From Okamejei kenojei (taxonomy: Eukaryota), in assembly GCA_035221665.1 (NCBI GenBank), contig CM069160.1, positions 1,302,001-1,366,000 on the forward strand: a stretch of DNA of 64,000 bases, in the 5' to 3' direction. Position 1 is the stretch's first letter. Each line of letters begins with the position of its first letter. Positions 157 to 52,900 of the stretch are shown here, piece after piece. Position numbers and translations under genes: made by a program. The notes under the pieces are model-generated. The model had not been told where the DNA came from, searched no databases, and saw only the letters and a program-made list of their open reading frames with translations.

Positions 157-412
157 ACCAGGCATGAGGAACTCCAGGTCTACGTGGTCCAGGACGGCAG
201 CCCGGACAAGCAGTTTGACCTGTGTTGGTGGATGACGATGAGATTCTCTACATGGACTTCAAGCTGAAGAAGGAGGTGGCGCGGATCCCCCGAGTTCCAG
301 GGCTTCCAAACGATGCAGGGAGGAGAGGCGACGATCACGGCTCAAATCGCCATCATGAAACAGAATTTAAATGTTTCAAGAACCTGTCGCACTGGAAGCC
401 CGGAGCGCAAAG
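157..412 (+). CDS. MHC-IIA: MHC class II alpha chain exon 2 (alpha1 peptide-binding domain), frameshifted in this assembly
   Basis: Pyrimidine-rich acceptor ...tttttctcacgcacAG at 155-156 and donor AG|GTGAAA at 413. Piecing frames gives RHEELQVYVVQDGSPDKQFDL-LVDDDEILYMDFKLKKEVARIP-EFQGFQTMQGGEATITAQIAIMKQNLNV-FKNLSH-GSPERK, colinear with the recalled nurse shark class II alpha (SPEKHFDV..DGDEIFYMDFNLKKEVARIPEF..MQGGEAGISANIAIVKNNL..NLSGGTPEPK). About 5 indels; correcting them gives 252 nt. Confidence 0.9.
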
Positions 413-12864: not shown

Positions 12865-13845
12865 GGACTCCATCCCCTACTCCCAATTCCTCCGTCTGCA
12901 CCCAGGATGAGGTGTTCCACAGCGGGGCATCGGAGATGTCCTCATTCTTTAGAGAACAGGGGTTCCCCTCTTATACTATAGATGAGGCTCTCACCAGTGT
13001 CTCTTCTCTACCCCGTAACTCTGCTGTCACTCCCCCCCCCCCCCCCCCACTCGTAACAAGGGCAGAGTCCCCCTTGTCCTCACCTTCCACCCTACCAGCC
13101 GTCACATACAACAGATAATCCTCCGACATTTCCGCCACCTCCAACGGGATTCCACCACTGGCATCTCCCATCTCCTTCCCTTTCGGCTTTCCGCAGAGAC
13201 TGCTCCCCTCCATAACTCCCTGGTCATTTTGTCCCTTCCCACCCAAACCACCCCCTCTCCTGGTACTTTCCCTCGCAACCGCAGGAAATGCTACACTTAT
13301 AACCATATAACAATTACAGCACGGAAACAGGCCCTCTCGGCCCTTCCAGTCCGTGCCGACCATTTGTTTTCCCCTAGTCCCATCTACCTGCACTCAGACC
13401 ATACCCCTCCATTCCCCTCCCATCCATATACCTATCCACTTTACTTTTAAATGTTAAAAGCGATCCTGTCTCCACCACTTCTGCTGGAAGCTCATTCCAC
13501 ACAGCCACCACCCTCTGAGTAAAGAAGTTCCCCCTCATGTTACCCCTAAACTTCTGTCCCTTAATTCTCATGTCATGCCCTCTTGTCACTTGTCACTTTA
13601 CCTCCCCCCTTGATACCATCCAAGGACCTAAGCAGTCTTTCCATGTGCGACAGAGGTTCACCTGCATCTCCTCCAACCTCATCTATTCCATCCACTGCTC
13701 TAGGTGTCAGCTGCTCTACATCGGTGAGACTAAGTGTAGGCTTGGTGATCGCTTCGCCCAACACCTCCGCTCGATTCGCAATAACCAACCTGATCTACCG
13801 GTGGCTCAGCACCTCAACTCCCCCCTCCCATTCTGAATACGACCT
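12865..13845 (+). mobile_element. Penelope-like element fragment (GIY-YIG endonuclease), interrupted by CR1
   Basis: IPYSQFLRL..., then QGPKQSFHVRQRFTCISSNLIYSIHCSRCQLLYIGETKCRLGDRFAQH...PVAQHLNS. Confidence 0.85.
13300..13585 (-). mobile_element. CR1 LINE 3' end
   Basis: TRGHDMRIKGQKFRGNMRGNFFTQRVVAVWNELP plus 3'UTR; a noisy relative lies at ~63230-63600. Confidence 0.85.
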
Positions 13846-15110: not shown

Positions 15111-15420
15111 TCCTCGGGGAGCCATGTCTCCGTGAAAACACATCACACTACTCTCACTGTTTTCCCTCTGTGTCCTCACTAGTGCAGCTAGCTCATCAAT
15201 CTTGTTAGCCAGCGATCAATGGATTGTGCTGGAAGGCAAGTATGGCTTGTACCTCCTTTTCTCCGCACATCGTTTTACTCCCGACCGACATCCCCTGTAT
15301 TTCCTCCTCCGTTCCTTGGGGATTTCTGATGTAACCCTGGTGAAGCCCGCTGGTCGGAGAGGTTGAAGCTCCAGCAGTTGATCTCTGGTGTAGACAACAA
15401 AGAGACCAGATCCTTGATGT

Positions 15421-15715
15421 TACATAGAAACATAGAAATTAGGTGCAGGAGCAGGCCATTCGGCCCTTCAAACCTGCACCGCCATTCAATATGATCATGG
15501 CTGATCATCCAACTCAATATCCTGTACCTGCCTTCTCTCCATACCCTCCTGATCCCTTCAGCCACAAGGGCCACATCCAACTCCCTCTTAAATATGGCCA
15601 ACGAACTGGCCTCAACTACCTTCTGTGGCAGAGAATTCCACAGATTCACCACTCTCTCTGTGAAAAACGATTTTCTCATCTCAGTCCTAAAAGACTTCCC
15701 CTTATCCTTAAAACT
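15421..15715 (-). mobile_element. CR1 LINE 3' end
   Basis: FFTERVVNLWNSLPQKVVEASSLAIFKRELD and (tttctatg)n tail. Confidence 0.85.
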
Positions 15716-16187
15716 TCCCCCTTATCCTTAAAACCTCCCCCTTATCCCCCTAATCCAGTGATTGTTCAGAGATACGCTGAAATAGTATTCCCCGAGGAGA
15801 TAAAAAGTTTCCCCACCACAACATGGTGGAAACAAAACGAACTAACCAAAAGACACAAAATAAATAGGAATTAAGTAAGTAAAAATAAAGGAAAAGATGA
15901 TCGACTGTTGCGTGGCTGCCGTGTGCACAGCGCCGGAAACCGGAAGCAAAAATGGTGGATAACCTCCATGTCAACAGTTATTTCCCAGTTAATCAGCTCT
16001 TCAAAGTGTTCTCACCATTCATAAATGATTGCTCATCCCCCTTCAGAAGAAGTTTGTCCATCTTTTGAGCACAGGCTGTTGTGCCCATGCTGGATGGGGC
16101 CATAGCTGGCCTTGGTGACATTGAAGAGAGCCTGGTGTCACTGAGTCAACATCACAGCTCCACCAGCTTGGCAAACTGGTGTCACAG

Positions 16188-16531
16188 ATTCTTTCTGCTA
16201 TCAATACCCTGAATGTGGTCCTGAAAGTTGGCCTCACAAATATCCGACTTGTAATGGAACCAGACAGTCACCAATCGATATTAAGACCAACACCACAATA
16301 ACAATGGATCAACTTGGTCCCTTCTCCTTCCAAGGCTACAACGAATCCAATCTGCTGAACATCAAGCACACAAAGAAGACCATTAGGGTGACCCTAGCCT
16401 CGGGAATGAAGGTGATGGGCGGAGGTCTCCCGTGGACTTATCTCCCCGTGCAGTTTCATCTTCACTGGGGGAAGACTGTGGCTTCGGGAGGATCAGAACA
16501 CAGACTGGATGGACAACAGTATGGAATGGAG
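16188..16531 (+). pseudogene. Alpha-carbonic anhydrase (CA4/CA15-like) N-terminal fragment, apparently partly processed
   Basis: Open frame DSFCYQYPECGPESWPHKYPTCNGTRQSPIDIKT...LGPFSFQGY...HTKKTIRVTLASGMKVMGGGLPWTYLPVQFHLHWGKTVASGGSEHRLDGQQYGME, then donor GAG|GTGAGG. Contains QSPIDI, QFHLHWG and GSEH motifs; the rest of the enzyme is not in the window. Confidence 0.9.
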
Positions 16532-16603
16532 GTGAGGGGGGAGACAGAGTGGGGGGAGATAGAGAGGGGGAAGAGACAGCGGGGAGAAAGGGGGAGAGAG
16601 AGG

Positions 16604-16868
16604 GTGAGAAAATCGATTTTCACACAGAGAGTGGGGAATCTGTGGAATTCTCTGCCACAGAAGGTAGTTTGAGGCCAGTTCGTTGGCCATATTTAAGAGG
16701 GAGTTGGATGTGGCCCTTGTGGCTGAAGGGATCAGAGGGTATGGAGAGAAGGCAGGTACAGTATATTGAGTTGGATGATCAGCCATGATCATGTTGAATG
16801 GCGGTGCAGGCTCGAAGGTCCGAATGGCCTGCTCCTGCACCTAATTTCTATGTTTCTATGTTTCTATG
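16604..16868 (+). mobile_element. CR1 LINE 3' end attached to the CA fragment
   Basis: FTQRVGNLWNSLPQKVV..., 3'UTR hairpin region and (tttctatg)3 tail ending at 16868. Confidence 0.88.
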
Positions 16869-17827
16869 CTGGATCTCTCGAGATTGTATTGGTGCACCAT
16901 TTGCTTTTCAGTTCCCTCATTCAGCACTGGACATTAGCCTTGGCTCTGGAATGCAGTTCCCTTTTGCCCTGGCATTTGATGCGATTCTGCCAGGAACAAA
17001 ACGTTTTCCCTTTCAATTTCAGTGTCATTGTCGTCACGCCAGTGCTGATGTTTTTGGTTTTGGTGCCAATGATGTTGCTGTTGGCATCAAGAATGGTTGT
17101 CTTTACCATATCCTGATGCTTCTCAATATCATTGGGATATTCTATAGGTAGATTCTGATTGAGGGCAGCTTGGAAAAGTTGCTGTATCTTAATATCTTCC
17201 TGGCTCTCAATATTAAATATAGGGCCAGCTCAGTTTCTTCTGCAGCTTTTTGTACAGTTCTAGTCACCACACACTATGAAGGATGTGATTACACTCCAGG
17301 GAGTGCAAAGGAGATTCACGGGATTTATGTTGCCTGGGTTTATGGAGATAGTGAGTTACAGTGGGAGTCATGGTGATTGGTGATTGGGGAGTTTATAATG
17401 GTGAGCATCATTGTGATGGGGATGATGTGATGGTGGGTTTACATTGATGTGACAGATTATGGTTTTGAGAGGGATTACCGTGATTGAGGGTTATTGTATT
17501 GGTTGATGTGGGTTGACGATATCACGACCAAAGTTCCTGCCCCAGCCCACACCTCCAGCTCCAGGTGACACGTCCACTAACCCCGGGGTTTACTGATGGA
17601 ACTCACTGCCGGTGAAGACCACAGGACAGGTGCTGGGACACAAATAAACCAACCATTTATCAGCTTCCACTGTTGGTTGTAAATCTGTGATTGCATTTCT
17701 GCTCTGCCTGTTAGTTGTGAACTAGTCCTGGTCTCTGCTGCCTACATTCCCCACCCACACTCATTGCATTCTGGTTTTCAGTGTCCTGTCACCTTGGTTA
17801 ACCTGTTCTCACCCTGTCTGCCCACAG

Positions 17828-18109
17828 TGCCTCCTCAGGCTGCCATGTACCCCGAGGATCCCGTGGAGTGGGGTCAGCCCAACACCTTGATCTGTCTGGC
17901 TGATGGATTCGCACCCCCACGCATCAACATGAAGTGGAAACGGAACGATGAGCCTGTGACCGAGGGAATCTACACCACGGAGTATTACATGAAGAGAGAT
18001 TACACCTTCCAGAGGTTCACCTATCTGAGCTTCATCCCGAGCCCGGGAGACATGTATTCCTGCCACGTGGAGCACGAGGGTCTGGAGAGGCCGACCACTG
18101 TCTTCTGGG
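17828..18109 (+). CDS. MHC-IIA: MHC class II alpha chain exon 3 (alpha2, Ig C1 domain)
   Basis: 282-nt phase1/phase1 exon, cccacAG|..|GTCAGT. (V)PPQAAMYPEDPVEWGQPNTLICLADGFAPPRINMKWKRN...YTFQRFTYLSFIPSPGDMYSCHVEHEGLERPTTVFW, with both C1 cysteines and the YxCxVxH motif; intact. Confidence 0.97.
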
Positions 18110-25495: not shown

Positions 25496-26464
25496 CAGGT
25501 ACACTATTTGGGAGTGCAAACTTAATACCACGTTTCCATTGCTTTGTAACAACCCCAGACCAATTCCATTCTCCTCATTCTCCCCCAGATCATTCCCAAA
25601 CTAATCCCATTTCCCACACTCTCCACCTGATCATTCCTAGACCAATCCCATTGCCCACACATTCCCCACTTGATGTCCCAGACCATTCCCACTCCTCTGC
25701 TCTCCACATAGCTCCAGTTAAGTCTGAAGTGAATCCCACAGGTGTGCAAATTTCCTACAGTTGTAACAAGGTAGATCTCATCCCGCTCTCTCCTCAGTTC
25801 CTGCGATCAGATTCTATTTTACCGATTTGTCCAAACTTTACATACATGTTCGCGGGGCTCTGGTTCAACAATTGCCGTGACCTCAGACAGCTCCCCCCGT
25901 GTATAAGCTCTGATGGTGCCCATCTTACATTTCCAACCTTCCATCACTCTCGTGTGGGATGTGTCTCCGAGGCAGAGAAGATTGGACAGGTGTATGTGAT
26001 GAAGTCTTGATCATGAGGGGCTCTCACACAGCAGACAGGTGAAGTTGTTTCTGCCGCCATGGGTCAGGAACCAGACGAGATGGATTTAAGCCAAGTGAGA
26101 TTTTCAAGCAGCAATCTCCTGTGATCTGGAATTCCCTGCTTGAATCTGGAAATAGGTTGAATAATTATACTAGATAATGGGATAAAGGGCTGAAGGAAAT
26201 GCCATGTAGTTGTAGGACAGGCTGGATGCTGCTTTCACATCGCTGGTAGAATGGGAATGTTGAACGTTTGCTGTTTGATAGTGTGAGTATTTCACACAGA
26301 TCAAGGAGTTACTGACATGTGGGAGCAGGGTTTGCCAACGTAAGTGTGTATTGGATGTGGGACTGGCTCCCCTCCACCCAGGTGGGCTTAGTGCCCCAAC
26401 TCTCTGCTCTGTGTTCACCCCGGGCTCTCTGTTGGATCCTCACCCTTCCCTCATCTCTCCCCAG

Positions 26465-26610
26465 AGCCCGAGGTACCCGAGGAAGCGTCCGGCCCTGGAA
26501 CCGTGATCTGCGCTCTGGGAATCACTCTGGGAATCATCAGCGCCGTGGTGGGAATCATCTTACTGATCAAAGAGAGGCAGCGGCTGCAGGCTCAGCAGCA
26601 GGGCATCTAG
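26465..26610 (+). CDS. MHC-IIA: MHC class II alpha chain exon 4 (connecting peptide, TM, cytoplasmic tail, stop)
   Basis: Acceptor ...catctctccccAG at 26463-26464. (E)PEVPEEASGPGTVICALGITLGIISAVVGIILLIKERQRLQAQQQGI*, with the class II alpha C-x2-G-x3-G-x6-G TM pattern. TAG at 26608-26610, then CG|GTGAGT donor at 26613. Not in the ORF track. Confidence 0.96.
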
Positions 26611-46929: not shown

Positions 46930-49900
46930 TTCTCCCAACTTCACCGTGTCCACCTGTCGTCACTTCATCCGTGACCCCTGTCCCACCTTCACCGTGTCCC
47001 TGTCCCCACTTCACCGTGTCCCCTGTCCCCACTTCACCGTGTACCCCTGTCCCACTTCACCGTGTCCCCTGTCCCCACTTCACCGTGGTCCCTGTCCCCA
47101 CTTCACGTGTCCCCTGACCCACTTCAGTGTGGCCCCCTGTCCCCACTTCTCACCGTAGTCCCCCTGACCCACTTCACCGTGGCCTCCCAGTGTGCCCAAC
47201 TTCACCATGTCCCCTTGTCCCCACTTCACCTGTGTCCCACTTTCACCATGTCCCCCTTGTCCCCTCTTCACCGTATCCCCCTGTCCCCACTTCACCGTGT
47301 CCCCCCGTACCCATTTCAACGTGTCCACCGCACCCACTTTCTCCGTGTCCCCCTAATGTCCCCACTTCACCGTGTCCCCTCCACCAATTCACCTTGTGCC
47401 CCTGTCCCACTTCTCCTGTGTCCCCCTGTCCCACACCCTTCACCGTTGTCCCCCTGTCCCCACTTCACCGTGTCCCGTGTTGCCCACTTATTTCTTCTAA
47501 CCATGTCCCCTTGTTCCCCCACTTCACCGTGTCCCCTCTGTCCCCTCTTCACCGTGTCCCCTTGTCCCCACTTCACCGTTGTCGTCCCCCTGTCCCCACC
47601 TTCACCGTGTCCCCCTGTCAATACTATCTCTCTATGTCCCCATGTCCACCTACTTCAACCGTGTCCCACTGTCCACACTTCACCTGTCACCCTGTCCCCA
47701 CCTTCACCGTGTGTCCCCTGTCCCCATTCACCGTGTCCCCCCTGTCCCCACTTCACCTGTGTCCCCTGTCCCCACTTCACCGTTCCTTTTGTCCCCAACT
47801 TCACCGTGTCCCCTGTCCCCACTTAACCGTGTCCCCTGTCCCCACTTCACCGTGTCCAACTTGTCCCCACGTCACCGCGTCCCCTGTACCCTCTTCACCG
47901 TGTCCCCATGTCCCCACTTCACGGGGTCCCCCTGTCCCCCTTTCCACCGTGTCCTCACTTACAACGTTTGTCCCCCGTCCACACTTCACCGTATCACCTG
48001 TCCCACTTCACCTGTCACCCTGTCCCCCTTCACTGTGTCCCCCTGTCCACCACTTCACCGTGTCCCCCTGTCCCCACTTCAAAGTCGTCCCTCCCCTGTC
48101 CGGACACTTCACCGTGTCAAACTGGTCCCCACTTTACCGTTGCCCCTGTCCCACCACTTCACCGTTGTTCCCCTGTCCACCACTTCACGTGTCCCCCTGC
48201 TCCCTCTTTCACCGTGTCCCCCTGTCCCCACTCACAGTGTCGCCCACTTCACCGTGTCCCCTGTCCCCACTTACCGTGTCCCCCTATCCCCACATTCACC
48301 GTGTCTCCCTGTCACACACTTCACCGTGTACCACTGTCCCCACTTTCTACCGTTGTTCCCTGTCCCCAAACCCTCTTCACCGTGTCACCTTGTCCCCACC
48401 TTCACTGTGTCACCGTGTCCCCACTTCACCCGATTTCTGCTGTCCTCACTCACCCGTTTCTCCCGTCCCCACTTATCCACTTGTCCCCCCTGTCCCCCAC
48501 TTCACCGTGTCCCCTCGTCCCCACCACTTCACCGTGTCACCCCCTGTCCCCTTCACGTTTCCCCCTGTACCCAACTTCACCGTGGCCCCCTGTTCCCCAG
48601 CATTCACCGTGTCCCCCTGTCCCCACCTTCACCGTGTCCCCCTGACCTCACTCACACCGTGTCCCCGTGTTCCCCCCACATTCACCATGTCCACTTCACC
48701 GTGTCACCCTATTGTACCCACTTCACCGTGTCCCTGTCCCCAACATTCAACCGTGTGCCCGGGTTGGGTTCGTGTGCCCACTTCACCATGTTCCCCCTGT
48801 CCCACTTTCACCGTTGTCCCACCCTGTCCTCAACTTCACCGGGGTTGCCCCCGTTTCCCCACCTTCACAGTGTCCCCGTCCCCACTTCACCGTGTCACCC
48901 TGTCCCCACTGTCAATTGTCCCCTGTCCCCACTTCACCGTGTCCCCATCCCCACTTCACCGTGTCCCCACACTTTCACCGAGTCCCCCTGTCCCCACTTC
49001 TACCGTGTCCCCCTGTCCCAACTTTCACCGTGTCCCCCTGTTCCCCACTTCAACCGTGTCCCCTGTCCCCATTCACCGTGCCCCTGTCCCCACTTCACCG
49101 TTGTTCCCCCTGTCCCCACTTTCTCACGTGTCACCCTGTCCCCACTTCAAGGTGTCCCCCTGTCTCATTACTCCGTGTCCCCCTGTCCCACCACGTCAAC
49201 CGTGTCCCCCTGTCCCACTTCACTGTGTCCCCGTGTCCCAACTTCACCGTGTCTCACTCTCACCGTGTTCCCCCTGTCCCACATCTTCACCGTGTCCCCC
49301 TCCTTCCCCTACTTCAACGTGTCCCCATGTCCACACTTACGTGTCCCCCTGTCCCCACTTCTCCGTGGCCCCTGTCCTCCCACTTCTCTACCGTGTCCCC
49401 TTGTCCCAACTTCACCGTGTCCCCCTGTCCCCACTTCACCGTGTCCCCACTTCACCGTGTCCCCCTGTCCCCACTTCACCGTGTCCCCCTGTCCCCACTT
49501 CACCGTGTCCCCCTGTCCCCACTTCACCGTGTCCCCCCTGTCCCCTCTCACCGTGTCCCACTTCCACCGTGTCCCTGTCCCCACTTTCACGCGTGTTCCC
49601 CCTGTCCCCACCTTCACCGTTGTCCCCTGTCACCACTTCACCGTGTCCTCACTTCACCGTGTCACCCGTCCCCACTTCCACCGTATCACTGTCCCCTCTT
49701 CACCGTGTCCCCTTGTACACTCACCGTGTCTCACTTCACCGTGTCCACCCGTCCCAACTTCACGTTATCCCCCTGTCCCCACGGCCCCCCCCCCTCACCA
49801 GTGTCCCCGCCGTCCCCACTTCATCATGTGTCCCCCTGTCCCCACTTCACCAGTGTCCTCACTTCAAAGTGTCCCCCGTCCCACTATCACAGTATCCCCC

Positions 49901-52900
49901 CTTGTCCCCACTTTAACCGTCCCCATGTCCCCATTCCACTGTGTCCCCCTCGTCCCCATCTTCTCCGTGGTCACTCCTGTACTCCACGTCAACGTGTTCC
50001 CCTGTCGCACTTCTCACCGTGTCCCCATGTCCCCACTTCACCGTGTACCCCTGTCCCCCTTCACCGTGTCCCCCTGTCACACTTCACCGTCGTCCCACCT
50101 GTCCCCATCATTCACCGTGTCCCCCTGGTCCTCACTTCACCGTGTCCCATTCCACGTGTCCCCTCTGTCCCACTTCTCGTGTGCCAGTGTGCACACTTCA
50201 CCATGTTCCCCTGTCCCCAACTTCAACCGTTGTCCCCCCCTCGTACACCACTTCACCGTGTCCCGTACCGCACTTCACCGTGGTTCCCCGTCCCCACTTC
50301 GATCCGTGTCCCCACTGTCCCCAACTCTCTCCTATGTCCCCCTAGTCCCACTTCCACCGTGTCCACCATCTCCCCACTGCACCGTGTCCACCCACTCTCT
50401 ACCGTGTACCCTGTTCCCCCACTTTCACCGTGTCCCATGTCCCTCATTCACCGCTGTACCCCCTGTCACCTCTTACATCAGTGTCACCTGTTCCCCACCT
50501 TCATCGTGGTACCCTCCTGTCCCCATTCACCGTGGGTCACTCCTGTTCCCCACTTCACCGTGTCCACTGTCATCATCACTTCACGCCAGTGTCCCCCTGA
50601 GTCCCACTCACCGCATGTCCCCCAGTCCCACTTCACTGTGTCCCCGTGTCCCAACTTCACGTGTCCTCTACTTCAACGTGTCCCCTGTCCCCACTCAAAC
50701 CGTGTTCCCCTGTCCCCACTTCACCGTGTCCCCTGTCCCCACTTCACGGTGGTCCCCCTGTCCCCCACTTCACCGTGTCCCACCTGGTCCCCTTCACGTT
50801 GTTACCCACTGTCCCCACTCTCACCGTGTCCCCTGTCCCCACTTCACCGTGTCACCCACTTCTACCACAAGTGTCCCCCTTAGTCCCCACTTCCACCGTT
50901 GTCCTCCTGTCCCCACTTCACCACGTGGTCCCCATGTCCCCACTTCACTGTGTCCCCTGTCCCCACTTCACGTGTCCCCACTTCACCGTGGTCCCTGTCC
51001 CACTTCACCGTGTCCCCCTGTCCCCACTTCACGTGTACCCCTGTCCCCCCCACTTAACCGTGTCTCACATTCACCGTGTCCCCCGTCCACACTTCACCGT
51101 ATCCCCCTGTCCCCATTCACCGTGTCCCCCTGTCCCCACTTCACCGTAGTCCTCACTTCACCGTGTCCCCGTCCCCACTCACGTATCCCCTTGTTCCCAC
51201 TTAACGCTTGTGTCCCACGTCACCCACTTCACTGTGTACCCCTGGTCCCATCTTCACCGTGTCCTCACTTCACCGTCGTCCCCGTTCCCCACTTCACCGT
51301 ATCCCCCTGTACCCCAACTTAACCGTCCCTCGTCCCCCACTTCACTGCTGTCCCCCTCTGGTCCCACTTCAACGTGTCCCCTTAGCTCCCCACTTCCATC
51401 GTGTCACCCTGTCCGCCACTTTCTCCGTGTTGCCCCTGTCCCACTTCACCGTGTCCCCATTGTCCTCCCACTTTCACCGTGTTACCCCTGTCCCACTAAA
51501 CCGTGTCCCCTGTCCCCACTTCACCGTGTCCCCTGTCCCTCCACTTCACCGGGTCCCCTCTTCACCGTGGTCCCACTGTCCCCACTTCACCAGTGTCCCA
51601 CCTGTCCCACTTCACCAGATGTCTCCCTGGTCCCACTTCACGTGTCCCCTTTACCCCTTCTTCACCGTGGCCCCCTGTCCCCAACTTCACCATGTCACAC
51701 CGGTCACCCACTTCACTGTGTCATCCAGTGTCCTCACTATAACCGTCTATGTCCTCACTTACCGTTTCCAAGTCCCCACTTCACCGTGTCCCCTGTTACC
51801 AAACTTCACCGTTGTCCCCCTGTCCCCACTTAACTCAGTGACCCCTGTCCCCACTTCACTCGTGTCCCCCTTCTGTTTCCCCATTCACCGTGTCCCCCGG
51901 TCCCCAATTCACCGTGTCCAATCTGTCCCCCACTTCAACGTGTCACCCCGTCCTCACTTCCCGTTCCCTGGTCCCCCGTGTCCCCACTTCACCATGTCCC
52001 CACGTTAACAGCCTGTCCCCTCCTGTCCCCACTTCTACGTTTTCGTCCCCTGTCCCCACTTCACCGTGTGCTCGTGTGCCCTACTTCACCATGTTCCCCT
52101 GTCCCCACTTCACGTTTGATCCCCCTGGTCCCACTTCTCCCGTGTCTCCACCGTCCCCACTTCTCACGTGTCCCCCGAGTCCCCACTTCACCGTGTCCCC
52201 ACTTGTCCCACTTCACCTATGTCCCCCTGTCCCCACTTCACCGTGTCCCCCATCCCAACTTCTACGTGTCCCCACTCTTACTCCGTGTCCCCTGTCCCCA
52301 CTTCACCCGTGTCCCGTCCCCACTTCACCGTGTCCCCCGCATGTCCCACTTCACCCGTTGTTTCCCCCTGTCCCCACTTTCACCGTGTCCCTGTCCCACT
52401 TCCACGTGTCCTCCCCCCTGTCCCCACTTCACCGTTTTCGGGATCCGCGCGTTCGTTTTTGTTCTTGTCACACTGCTCCCCTCTTCACCGTTTGTCTCCC
52501 TGTCCTTCTACTTCACGTTGTCCCCTGTCCCCACTTCACAATCGTCCCCCTGATCCCCACTGCACCTGTGTCCCAGTGTCCCACTTCACCGTGTCCCCCT
52601 GTCCCCACTTCACCGTGTCCCCCTGTCCCCACTTCACCGTGTCCCCCTGTCCCCACTTCACCGTGTCCCCCTGTCCCCACTTCACCGTGTCCCCTGTCCC
52701 CACTTCACCCGTGTTGGTCCCCTGTCCCACACTTCACCGTGTCCCCTTGTCCCCACTTCACCGTGTCCACCCTGTCCCCACTTCTCCGTTTGTCCCCTGT
52801 CCCCACTCACACGTCGACCCACTTCACCGTTGTTACACCCTTGTCCGCACTCACCGTGTCCCCCTGTCCCCACTTCACAGTGTCACCTGTTCCCACTACA

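Follow-up and report, generated by a model that had tools for sequence, protein, structure and literature searches.

A spliced but unfinished carbonic anhydrase transcript copied into a skate MHC class II alpha intron, likely by CR1 priming at an intronic tail

The window (the whole 64,000-nucleotide stretch of Okamejei kenojei DNA analysed here, C30:1302001-1366000) covers much of a gene for an MHC class II alpha chain, the second intron of which harbors, on the same strand, a 720-base insert (window 16149-16868) that copies a spliced but unfinished transcript of a carbonic anhydrase 4-like (‘CA4-like’) gene. The bounds of the insert are 16149/16152 and 16865/16868, with a 3-nt ambiguity at each end; its parts and surroundings are collected in Table 1. 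The closest named protein to the host gene is a skate class II alpha chain (86-89%), and its alpha1 exon was detected only when skate-like proteins were used as queries; the Pfam MHC_II_alpha profile returned no match genome-wide, nor in the 87 scanned of 98 listed upstream frames. The alpha2 exon has a single match in the genome, which makes a consensus error a likelier reason for the alpha1 frameshift than a pseudogene, and which led to the rejection of a paralogous MHC intron as the empty site described below. The presence of class II alpha exons on both sides of the insert, in its own orientation, agrees with the original prediction, made from the letters of the window, that a cassette had landed in an MHC intron.

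Table 1. Features at the insertion locus (window coordinates; C25 is the contig that carries the parent gene)
Feature	Position	Strand	Basis or remark
MHC class II alpha, most upstream exon found	-11702 (relative to window start)	+	protein match
MHC class II alpha, alpha1 exon	about 160-411	+	skate-like protein match; frameshifted in this assembly
Old LINE relic, left of insert	15953-16151	-	related loci; ACA 16149-16151 also fits insert
Parent exon 1	16149-16187	+	match to C25:271517-271481 and 322483-322445, GT next in parent
Parent exon 3 (30 nt, DSFCYQYPEC)	16188-16217	+	parent C25:266928-266899
Parent exon 4 (165 nt; 168 in parent)	16218-16382	+	parent C25:266203-266036
Parent exon 5 (149 nt; FHLHWG, SEH, ME)	16383-16531	+	parent C25:264674-264526
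Parent intron 5 start, retained (donor GTGAGG at 16532 + GA-rich DNA)	16532-16604	+	
5'-truncated CR1-type 3' end from parent intron 5	16605-16868	+	parent C25:264443-264188
Old LINE relic, right of insert	16866-17274	-	related loci
MHC class II alpha, alpha2 exon	17827-18108	+	~960 nt downstream of insert
MHC class II alpha, transmembrane exon	26464-26607	+	

The open frame at 16188-16531, which had been read as carbonic anhydrase in the original prediction, matches the alpha-carbonic anhydrase family (Pfam PF00194, E 1e-28, profile positions 1-109); its best solved-structure relatives are CA IV, its closest named protein is a little-skate CA4-like protein (88%), and it is the only one of 47 genome matches to hold positions 1-109 in one piece. 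A DNA search of the genome with the insert gave nine matches: the window itself and eight pieces on contig C25. On the minus strand of that contig, tblastn with the skate protein located a complete parent copy, comprising the signal-peptide exon and all later coding exons (267131 to about 261300), in a region that is interrupted by two gaps and also has noisy, partial duplicates. One parent copy (C25:93538-97334) is rearranged: it breaks in exon 5, after which flanking sequence of intron 5 and a longer CR1 follow in inverse orientation; this rearrangement may be real, as a contig from a public DNA run (X1) breaks at the same place.

The numbering of the parent exons is inferred from sequence: a 73-nt exon with an ATG and a signal peptide has a good acceptor, and is therefore ranked as exon 2. 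The segment at C25:271517-271481 (37-39 nt), which ends at a GT, has no acceptor upstream and is preceded at 34-39 nt by a TATA-like TACATAAA, is likely, on these sequence features, to be a non-coding first exon. The 39-nt head of the insert is identical at 39/39 positions to C25:322483-322445, which replaces the ‘~45 nt’ of unknown sequence of the earlier description with parent exon 1; likewise, the start once placed at 16142 moves to 16149/16152, because 16142-16148 is flank of the old LINE.

Three joints within the insert, all at exact GT/AG ends, mark the removal of 4552, 695 and 1361 nt, with ambiguities of 3, 3 and 0 nt, respectively. The first connects exon 1 to exon 3 and so skips exon 2 with its start codon and signal peptide, while the second and third correspond to the introns between exons 3 and 4 and between exons 4 and 5. 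DNA end-joining does not account for the exon 4-5 joint, which has zero microhomology. The earlier claim that two introns had been removed was right in that the parent has introns at both fused junctions, and too low in its count, since three joints are spliced. When each exon is set against its nearest parent copy, a single substitution and a single 3-nt deletion are the only differences over 383 exonic bases, and the copy is thus young.

From exon 5 to the CR1 tail the insert aligns with the parent without a break (492 columns), and beyond the tail there is no homology. The donor GTGAGG, the GA-rich DNA and the CR1 3' end with its intact triple 8-nt tail are all present in the window, as had been reported, and the parent intron after ‘ME’ opens with this GA-rich DNA and continues into this 5'-truncated CR1, as had been foreseen. 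The 17-nt junction between intron and CR1 occurs at two places in the genome (2.76 Gb), the parent and the copy (reversed control, 0), and neither an exon search nor a junction-pattern search of the genome revealed sibling copies. Near the copy there are no other CA exons, and the insert shares no flank with the parent locus; a nested gene or a DNA duplication, both named beforehand as alternatives, were rejected on these grounds. The insert, on contig C30 as opposed to the parent on C25, with its introns exactly removed and with an empty site in other samples, is an RNA-based duplicate (a ‘retrocopy’).

One of the three joints has a second possible history. In run X5, exons 3 and 4 (window 16185-16382) are contiguous in a 599-nt DNA contig (depth 68), the 695-nt intron being absent, and the flanks on both sides are unlike those here; runs X1, X10 and X13 show exon 4 alone. 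The exon 3-4 joint was thus possibly inherited from an intron-less allele, which leaves the other two joints unaffected. An exact loss of this intron from the parent gene is possible in the X5 sample and, given the 3-nt microhomology at the joint, could have proceeded by cDNA conversion or by end-joining. The joints between exons 1 and 3 and between exons 4 and 5 appear in none of the contigs listed from the four DNA runs, nor elsewhere in the genome.

The CR1 part of the insert consists of the end of ORF2, a predicted hairpin at about 16803-16841 and a tail, (TTTCTATG)3, at 16845-16868; we take it to be CR1 from that tail and from its ORF2 motifs. The combination of a hairpin and the 8-nt repeat TTTCTATG fits a CR1-type ending, the predicted hairpin being not much more stable than shuffled sequences (z -1.5). 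The family is large and young: there are 292,946 candidates in the genome, the best 150 of which show 89-96% amino-acid identity (the query itself aside), with open frames of up to 917 aa and an RVT_1 match. Its members are 90-96.5% like the insert CR1, and the parent CR1 is no closer than these, with seven substitutions and one indel over 256 nt. A G at 16793 is common to copy and parent and absent from 8/8 other copies compared, and the base at 16819 is private to the copy. The complete parent carries two tail units, and both the rearranged parent copy and the insert carry three, so slippage at insertion is not established. The skate repeat may be set against that of amniotes, given as ATTCTRTG (PMC8665684).

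Two further observations concern this family. If intron 5 is retained, translation of the parent would continue in frame at C25:264675-264280 from exon 5 into the last ~50 codons of CR1 ORF2, for which the chance is 1 in 3. Within another LINE-like relic, at window 15419-15678, the minus strand carries a further CR1 3' end of this family, inserted independently.

Both flanks of the insert belong to a single old LINE, which resembles its relatives at 60-70% and is presumably of the RTE clade, to judge from its motifs (RVT_1 was found in 3/5 frames of related loci tested). In most of 17 related loci the left and right parts stand ~10 nt apart, in keeping with the earlier view of a LINE split by the insert. 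The expected empty site exists: a joint of 16151 to 16866, with 714 nt skipped, occurs in three of the four public DNA runs (X1, X5 and X13, from three studies and two organism labels, with two samples of organism A and one of C), and is absent among the contigs listed from X10. In those animals, therefore, one haplotype at least is without the insert. No filled junctions occur among the contigs listed from the four runs, which leaves this assembly, where the sequence at the insert is clean, as the one source for the filled allele.

The joining of 16151 to 16866 means that ACA is common to the target and exon 1, and ATG (16866-16868) to the target and the CR1 tail, so that each end of the insert has 3 nt of microhomology; there is no target-site duplication. 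The alignment of the relatives takes 9 nt at the target where the window keeps 7, which, together with the length of the X5 record (236 = 204 + 30 + 2), points to a loss of ~2 target nucleotides. The 10-mer CTGGTGTCAC is found both in the target LINE (16132-16141) and in parent exon 1 (16176-16185), and both occurrences predate the insertion; this match, noticed after the fact, may have helped the cDNA end to find its target.

The insert is the copy of a partly spliced, exon-skipped CA4-like transcript, and was likely produced by the reverse transcriptase of an active CR1 elsewhere, which primed on the hairpin and repeat of intron 5. Transcription would have started from the CA4-like promoter suggested by the TATA-like box; with its start 34-39 nt below that box, the copy would lack little or nothing of the transcript's 5' end if the promoter is rightly placed. 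The upstream introns would have been spliced out first, with intron 5 still in the RNA, after which a CR1 protein from another locus would have bound the intronic hairpin and 8-nt repeat, primed there and placed the cDNA in the MHC intron, at the probable cost of the two or so target bases. Priming within a longer RNA is suggested by the parent intron 5 itself (670 nt), which contains neither AATAAA nor ATTAAA and continues for 330 nt past the CR1 tail, and a supply of the enzyme in trans by the length of the CR1 fragment, only 264 nt. The event presumably took place in the germ line or early embryo, and the RNA first engaged by the enzyme may have been a nascent pre-mRNA rather than an mRNA.

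Published work describes stringent LINEs as starting at their terminal repeat (UnaL2, PMC1636434) and attributes to ZfL2-2, another such LINE, short truncations, blunt joints and microhomology at both ends (PMC2666801). Chicken oocyte nuclei are similarly described as rich in partly spliced RNA that is released at envelope breakdown (PMC11602149); that such RNA served as the template in the skate is speculation by analogy. The central proposal of the original prediction, that a CR1 tail had captured a partly spliced transcript, gains support from every check that was run upon it (parent introns, the GA-rich and CR1 match, flanks and empty site).

Several familiar classes of duplicate do not accommodate the insert. 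An L1-type processed pseudogene was rejected for want of a poly(A), an mRNA 3' end and a target-site duplication, the insert ending instead in (TTTCTATG)3 within intron 5; a CR1-tailed SINE, because there is a single spliced copy rather than many with an internal Pol III head; and an LTR-mediated retrocopy, because both flanks belong to one old LINE. In a survey of the ordinary processed-pseudogene background, the GAPDH profile gave no match, even to the GAPDH gene itself, and RPL21 gave one exon.

Three other routes to the same product deserve to be weighed. The enzyme could have begun on an ordinary CR1 RNA and jumped to the CA pre-mRNA within the homologous intronic CR1, which would make the intronic tail a landing pad rather than a recognition site and would leave a product that looks no different. 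Template switching is documented for stringent LINEs by the work on U6-L2 chimeras (PMC4476161), and two of the eight places at which the copy CR1 differs from its parent have states found in other family members; yet the parent-only variant at 16793 confines any such switch to the last 75 nt, and two RNAs are invoked where one is enough, so that we hold this course to be unlikely. A different enzyme (L1/Tx1, RTE, or RNA-templated break repair) that copied an RNA fragment ending by chance at the CR1 tail is very unlikely. L1-type enzymes can prime internally, and the missing target duplication would suit them, but the insert ends exactly on the CR1 8-nt repeat, one place in a transcript of >10 kb, and has no poly(A), and the target LINE is an old relic (60-70% diverged) and thus no source of enzyme. 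Also on the side of a different enzyme is the plenty of retrocopies in cartilaginous fishes, 14,081 of which make up the set of a 2026 preprint survey (10.64898/2026.06.26.734816) that credits them to CR1 or Tx1 by correlation only.

Least credible of all is duplication at the DNA level, from an intron-poor allele or an older retrocopy, or else an artefact of assembly. The X5 contig with exons 3 and 4 joined, the absence of the filled allele among contigs listed from other runs, and the noisy duplicates and gaps of the parent region speak for it; against it stand the two remaining joints, seen in no listed DNA contig and nowhere else in the genome, as well as the lack of parent flank, the clean sequence at the insert and the microhomology with a real empty site at both ends. 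Priming by a CR1 enzyme on the intronic tail is the likely reading.

The copy lacks the start-codon exon and its frame halts at ME, the third histidine being at the beginning of parent exon 6. A functional alpha-carbonic anhydrase retrogene was rejected, since there is no start codon and the third zinc ligand is missing (the histidines being the zinc ligands of alpha-carbonic anhydrases). With no promoter, no start-codon exon and half a domain that stops just before that ligand, the copy is predicted from its sequence to be dead, and it is probably without function. An in-frame MHC-CA fusion was likewise rejected, because the 344 nt of 16188-16531 begin in phase 1 and end in phase 0, and the MHC exons on either side are in phase 1; nor is a strong acceptor evident. 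The suggestion that such events offer a route to ‘exon shuffling’ keeps its force as a possibility, while this copy, dead, 344 nt long and unable to keep the MHC reading frame, does not show it.

The source element lies in the parent, and the host sequence upstream of it is co-linear with the insert after splicing; the insert is a variant of 5' transduction, carried out with a stringent LINE, and has the anatomy of human SVA 5' transductions. The latter (LINC02916 and UQCRC1; PMC12593883) likewise combine a host promoter, canonical upstream splicing and read-through into the next intron, and terminate where a non-autonomous intronic element has its 3' end, with an enzyme supplied in trans; in the skate the promoter and the supply in trans are predicted. 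They differ in their poly(A) end and in their relaxed L1 enzyme, whereas the handle in the skate is a dead CR1 end of 264 nt with a predicted hairpin and an 8-nt repeat, neither a poly(A) nor a target duplication is present, and the RNA probably did not end there. In RAP1GDS1/L1PA2 and other mRNA/LINE-1 5' chimeras (10.1101/2025.02.02.635956), too, an intronic LINE with no promoter of its own is borne on a host transcript together with spliced first exons; in contrast to the insert, in which the intron start is kept and the element is non-coding, these chimeras are spliced into a nearly complete coding L1 acting in cis, and 15 of 17 parent loci are without an intronic L1.

CR1- and L2-tailed SINEs and U6-L2 chimeras resemble the insert in that a passenger RNA is moved by the tail of a stringent LINE, but they have (PMC5729268, PMC4476161, PMC3747384) small Pol III RNA heads joined by template switching, while the insert has a spliced Pol II head, a join already present in genomic DNA, and a single copy. 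Partially processed retrogenes (PMC5470649) share with it the loss of some introns and the keeping of one, and LTR-mediated retrocopies (PMC5131818) the fact of RNA-based duplication outside mammals; unlike them, the insert has no 3' exons or poly(A) and no LTR on either side. Reviews hold that the need of CR1 for its own tail limits the RNAs that it copies (PMC5470649). The literature searched, which covers few subscription papers, yielded no published example in which CR1 joins spliced host exons to an intronic source; for stringent LINEs it gave only SINEs and U6 chimeras.

The locus thus represents a source-resolved case, for which parent, junctions and empty site are all in hand, and it suggests that a stringent enzyme is able to start inside a longer, unfinished RNA. 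More tentatively, and with rather less confidence than doubt, we propose that dead, sense-oriented CR1 3' ends in introns might act as general handles for CR1 priming within unfinished nuclear transcripts, so that CR1-rich genomes would contain a hidden class of retrocopies without poly(A), in which the 5' exons of a gene are kept and its 3' end is missing, a pattern that mirrors that of L1 retrocopies. Such cDNAs could also erase introns from their parents, as is hinted by the intron-less exon 3-4 contig of one sample. A testable rule follows: in the intron at which a copy breaks off, its parent should carry a CR1 tail in sense orientation.

Apart from the insert, the window has a weak GIY-YIG match, below the cut-off, at 13519-13833, possibly a Penelope-like relic, and a 5.9-kb array with a 24-nt unit at 46933-52807.
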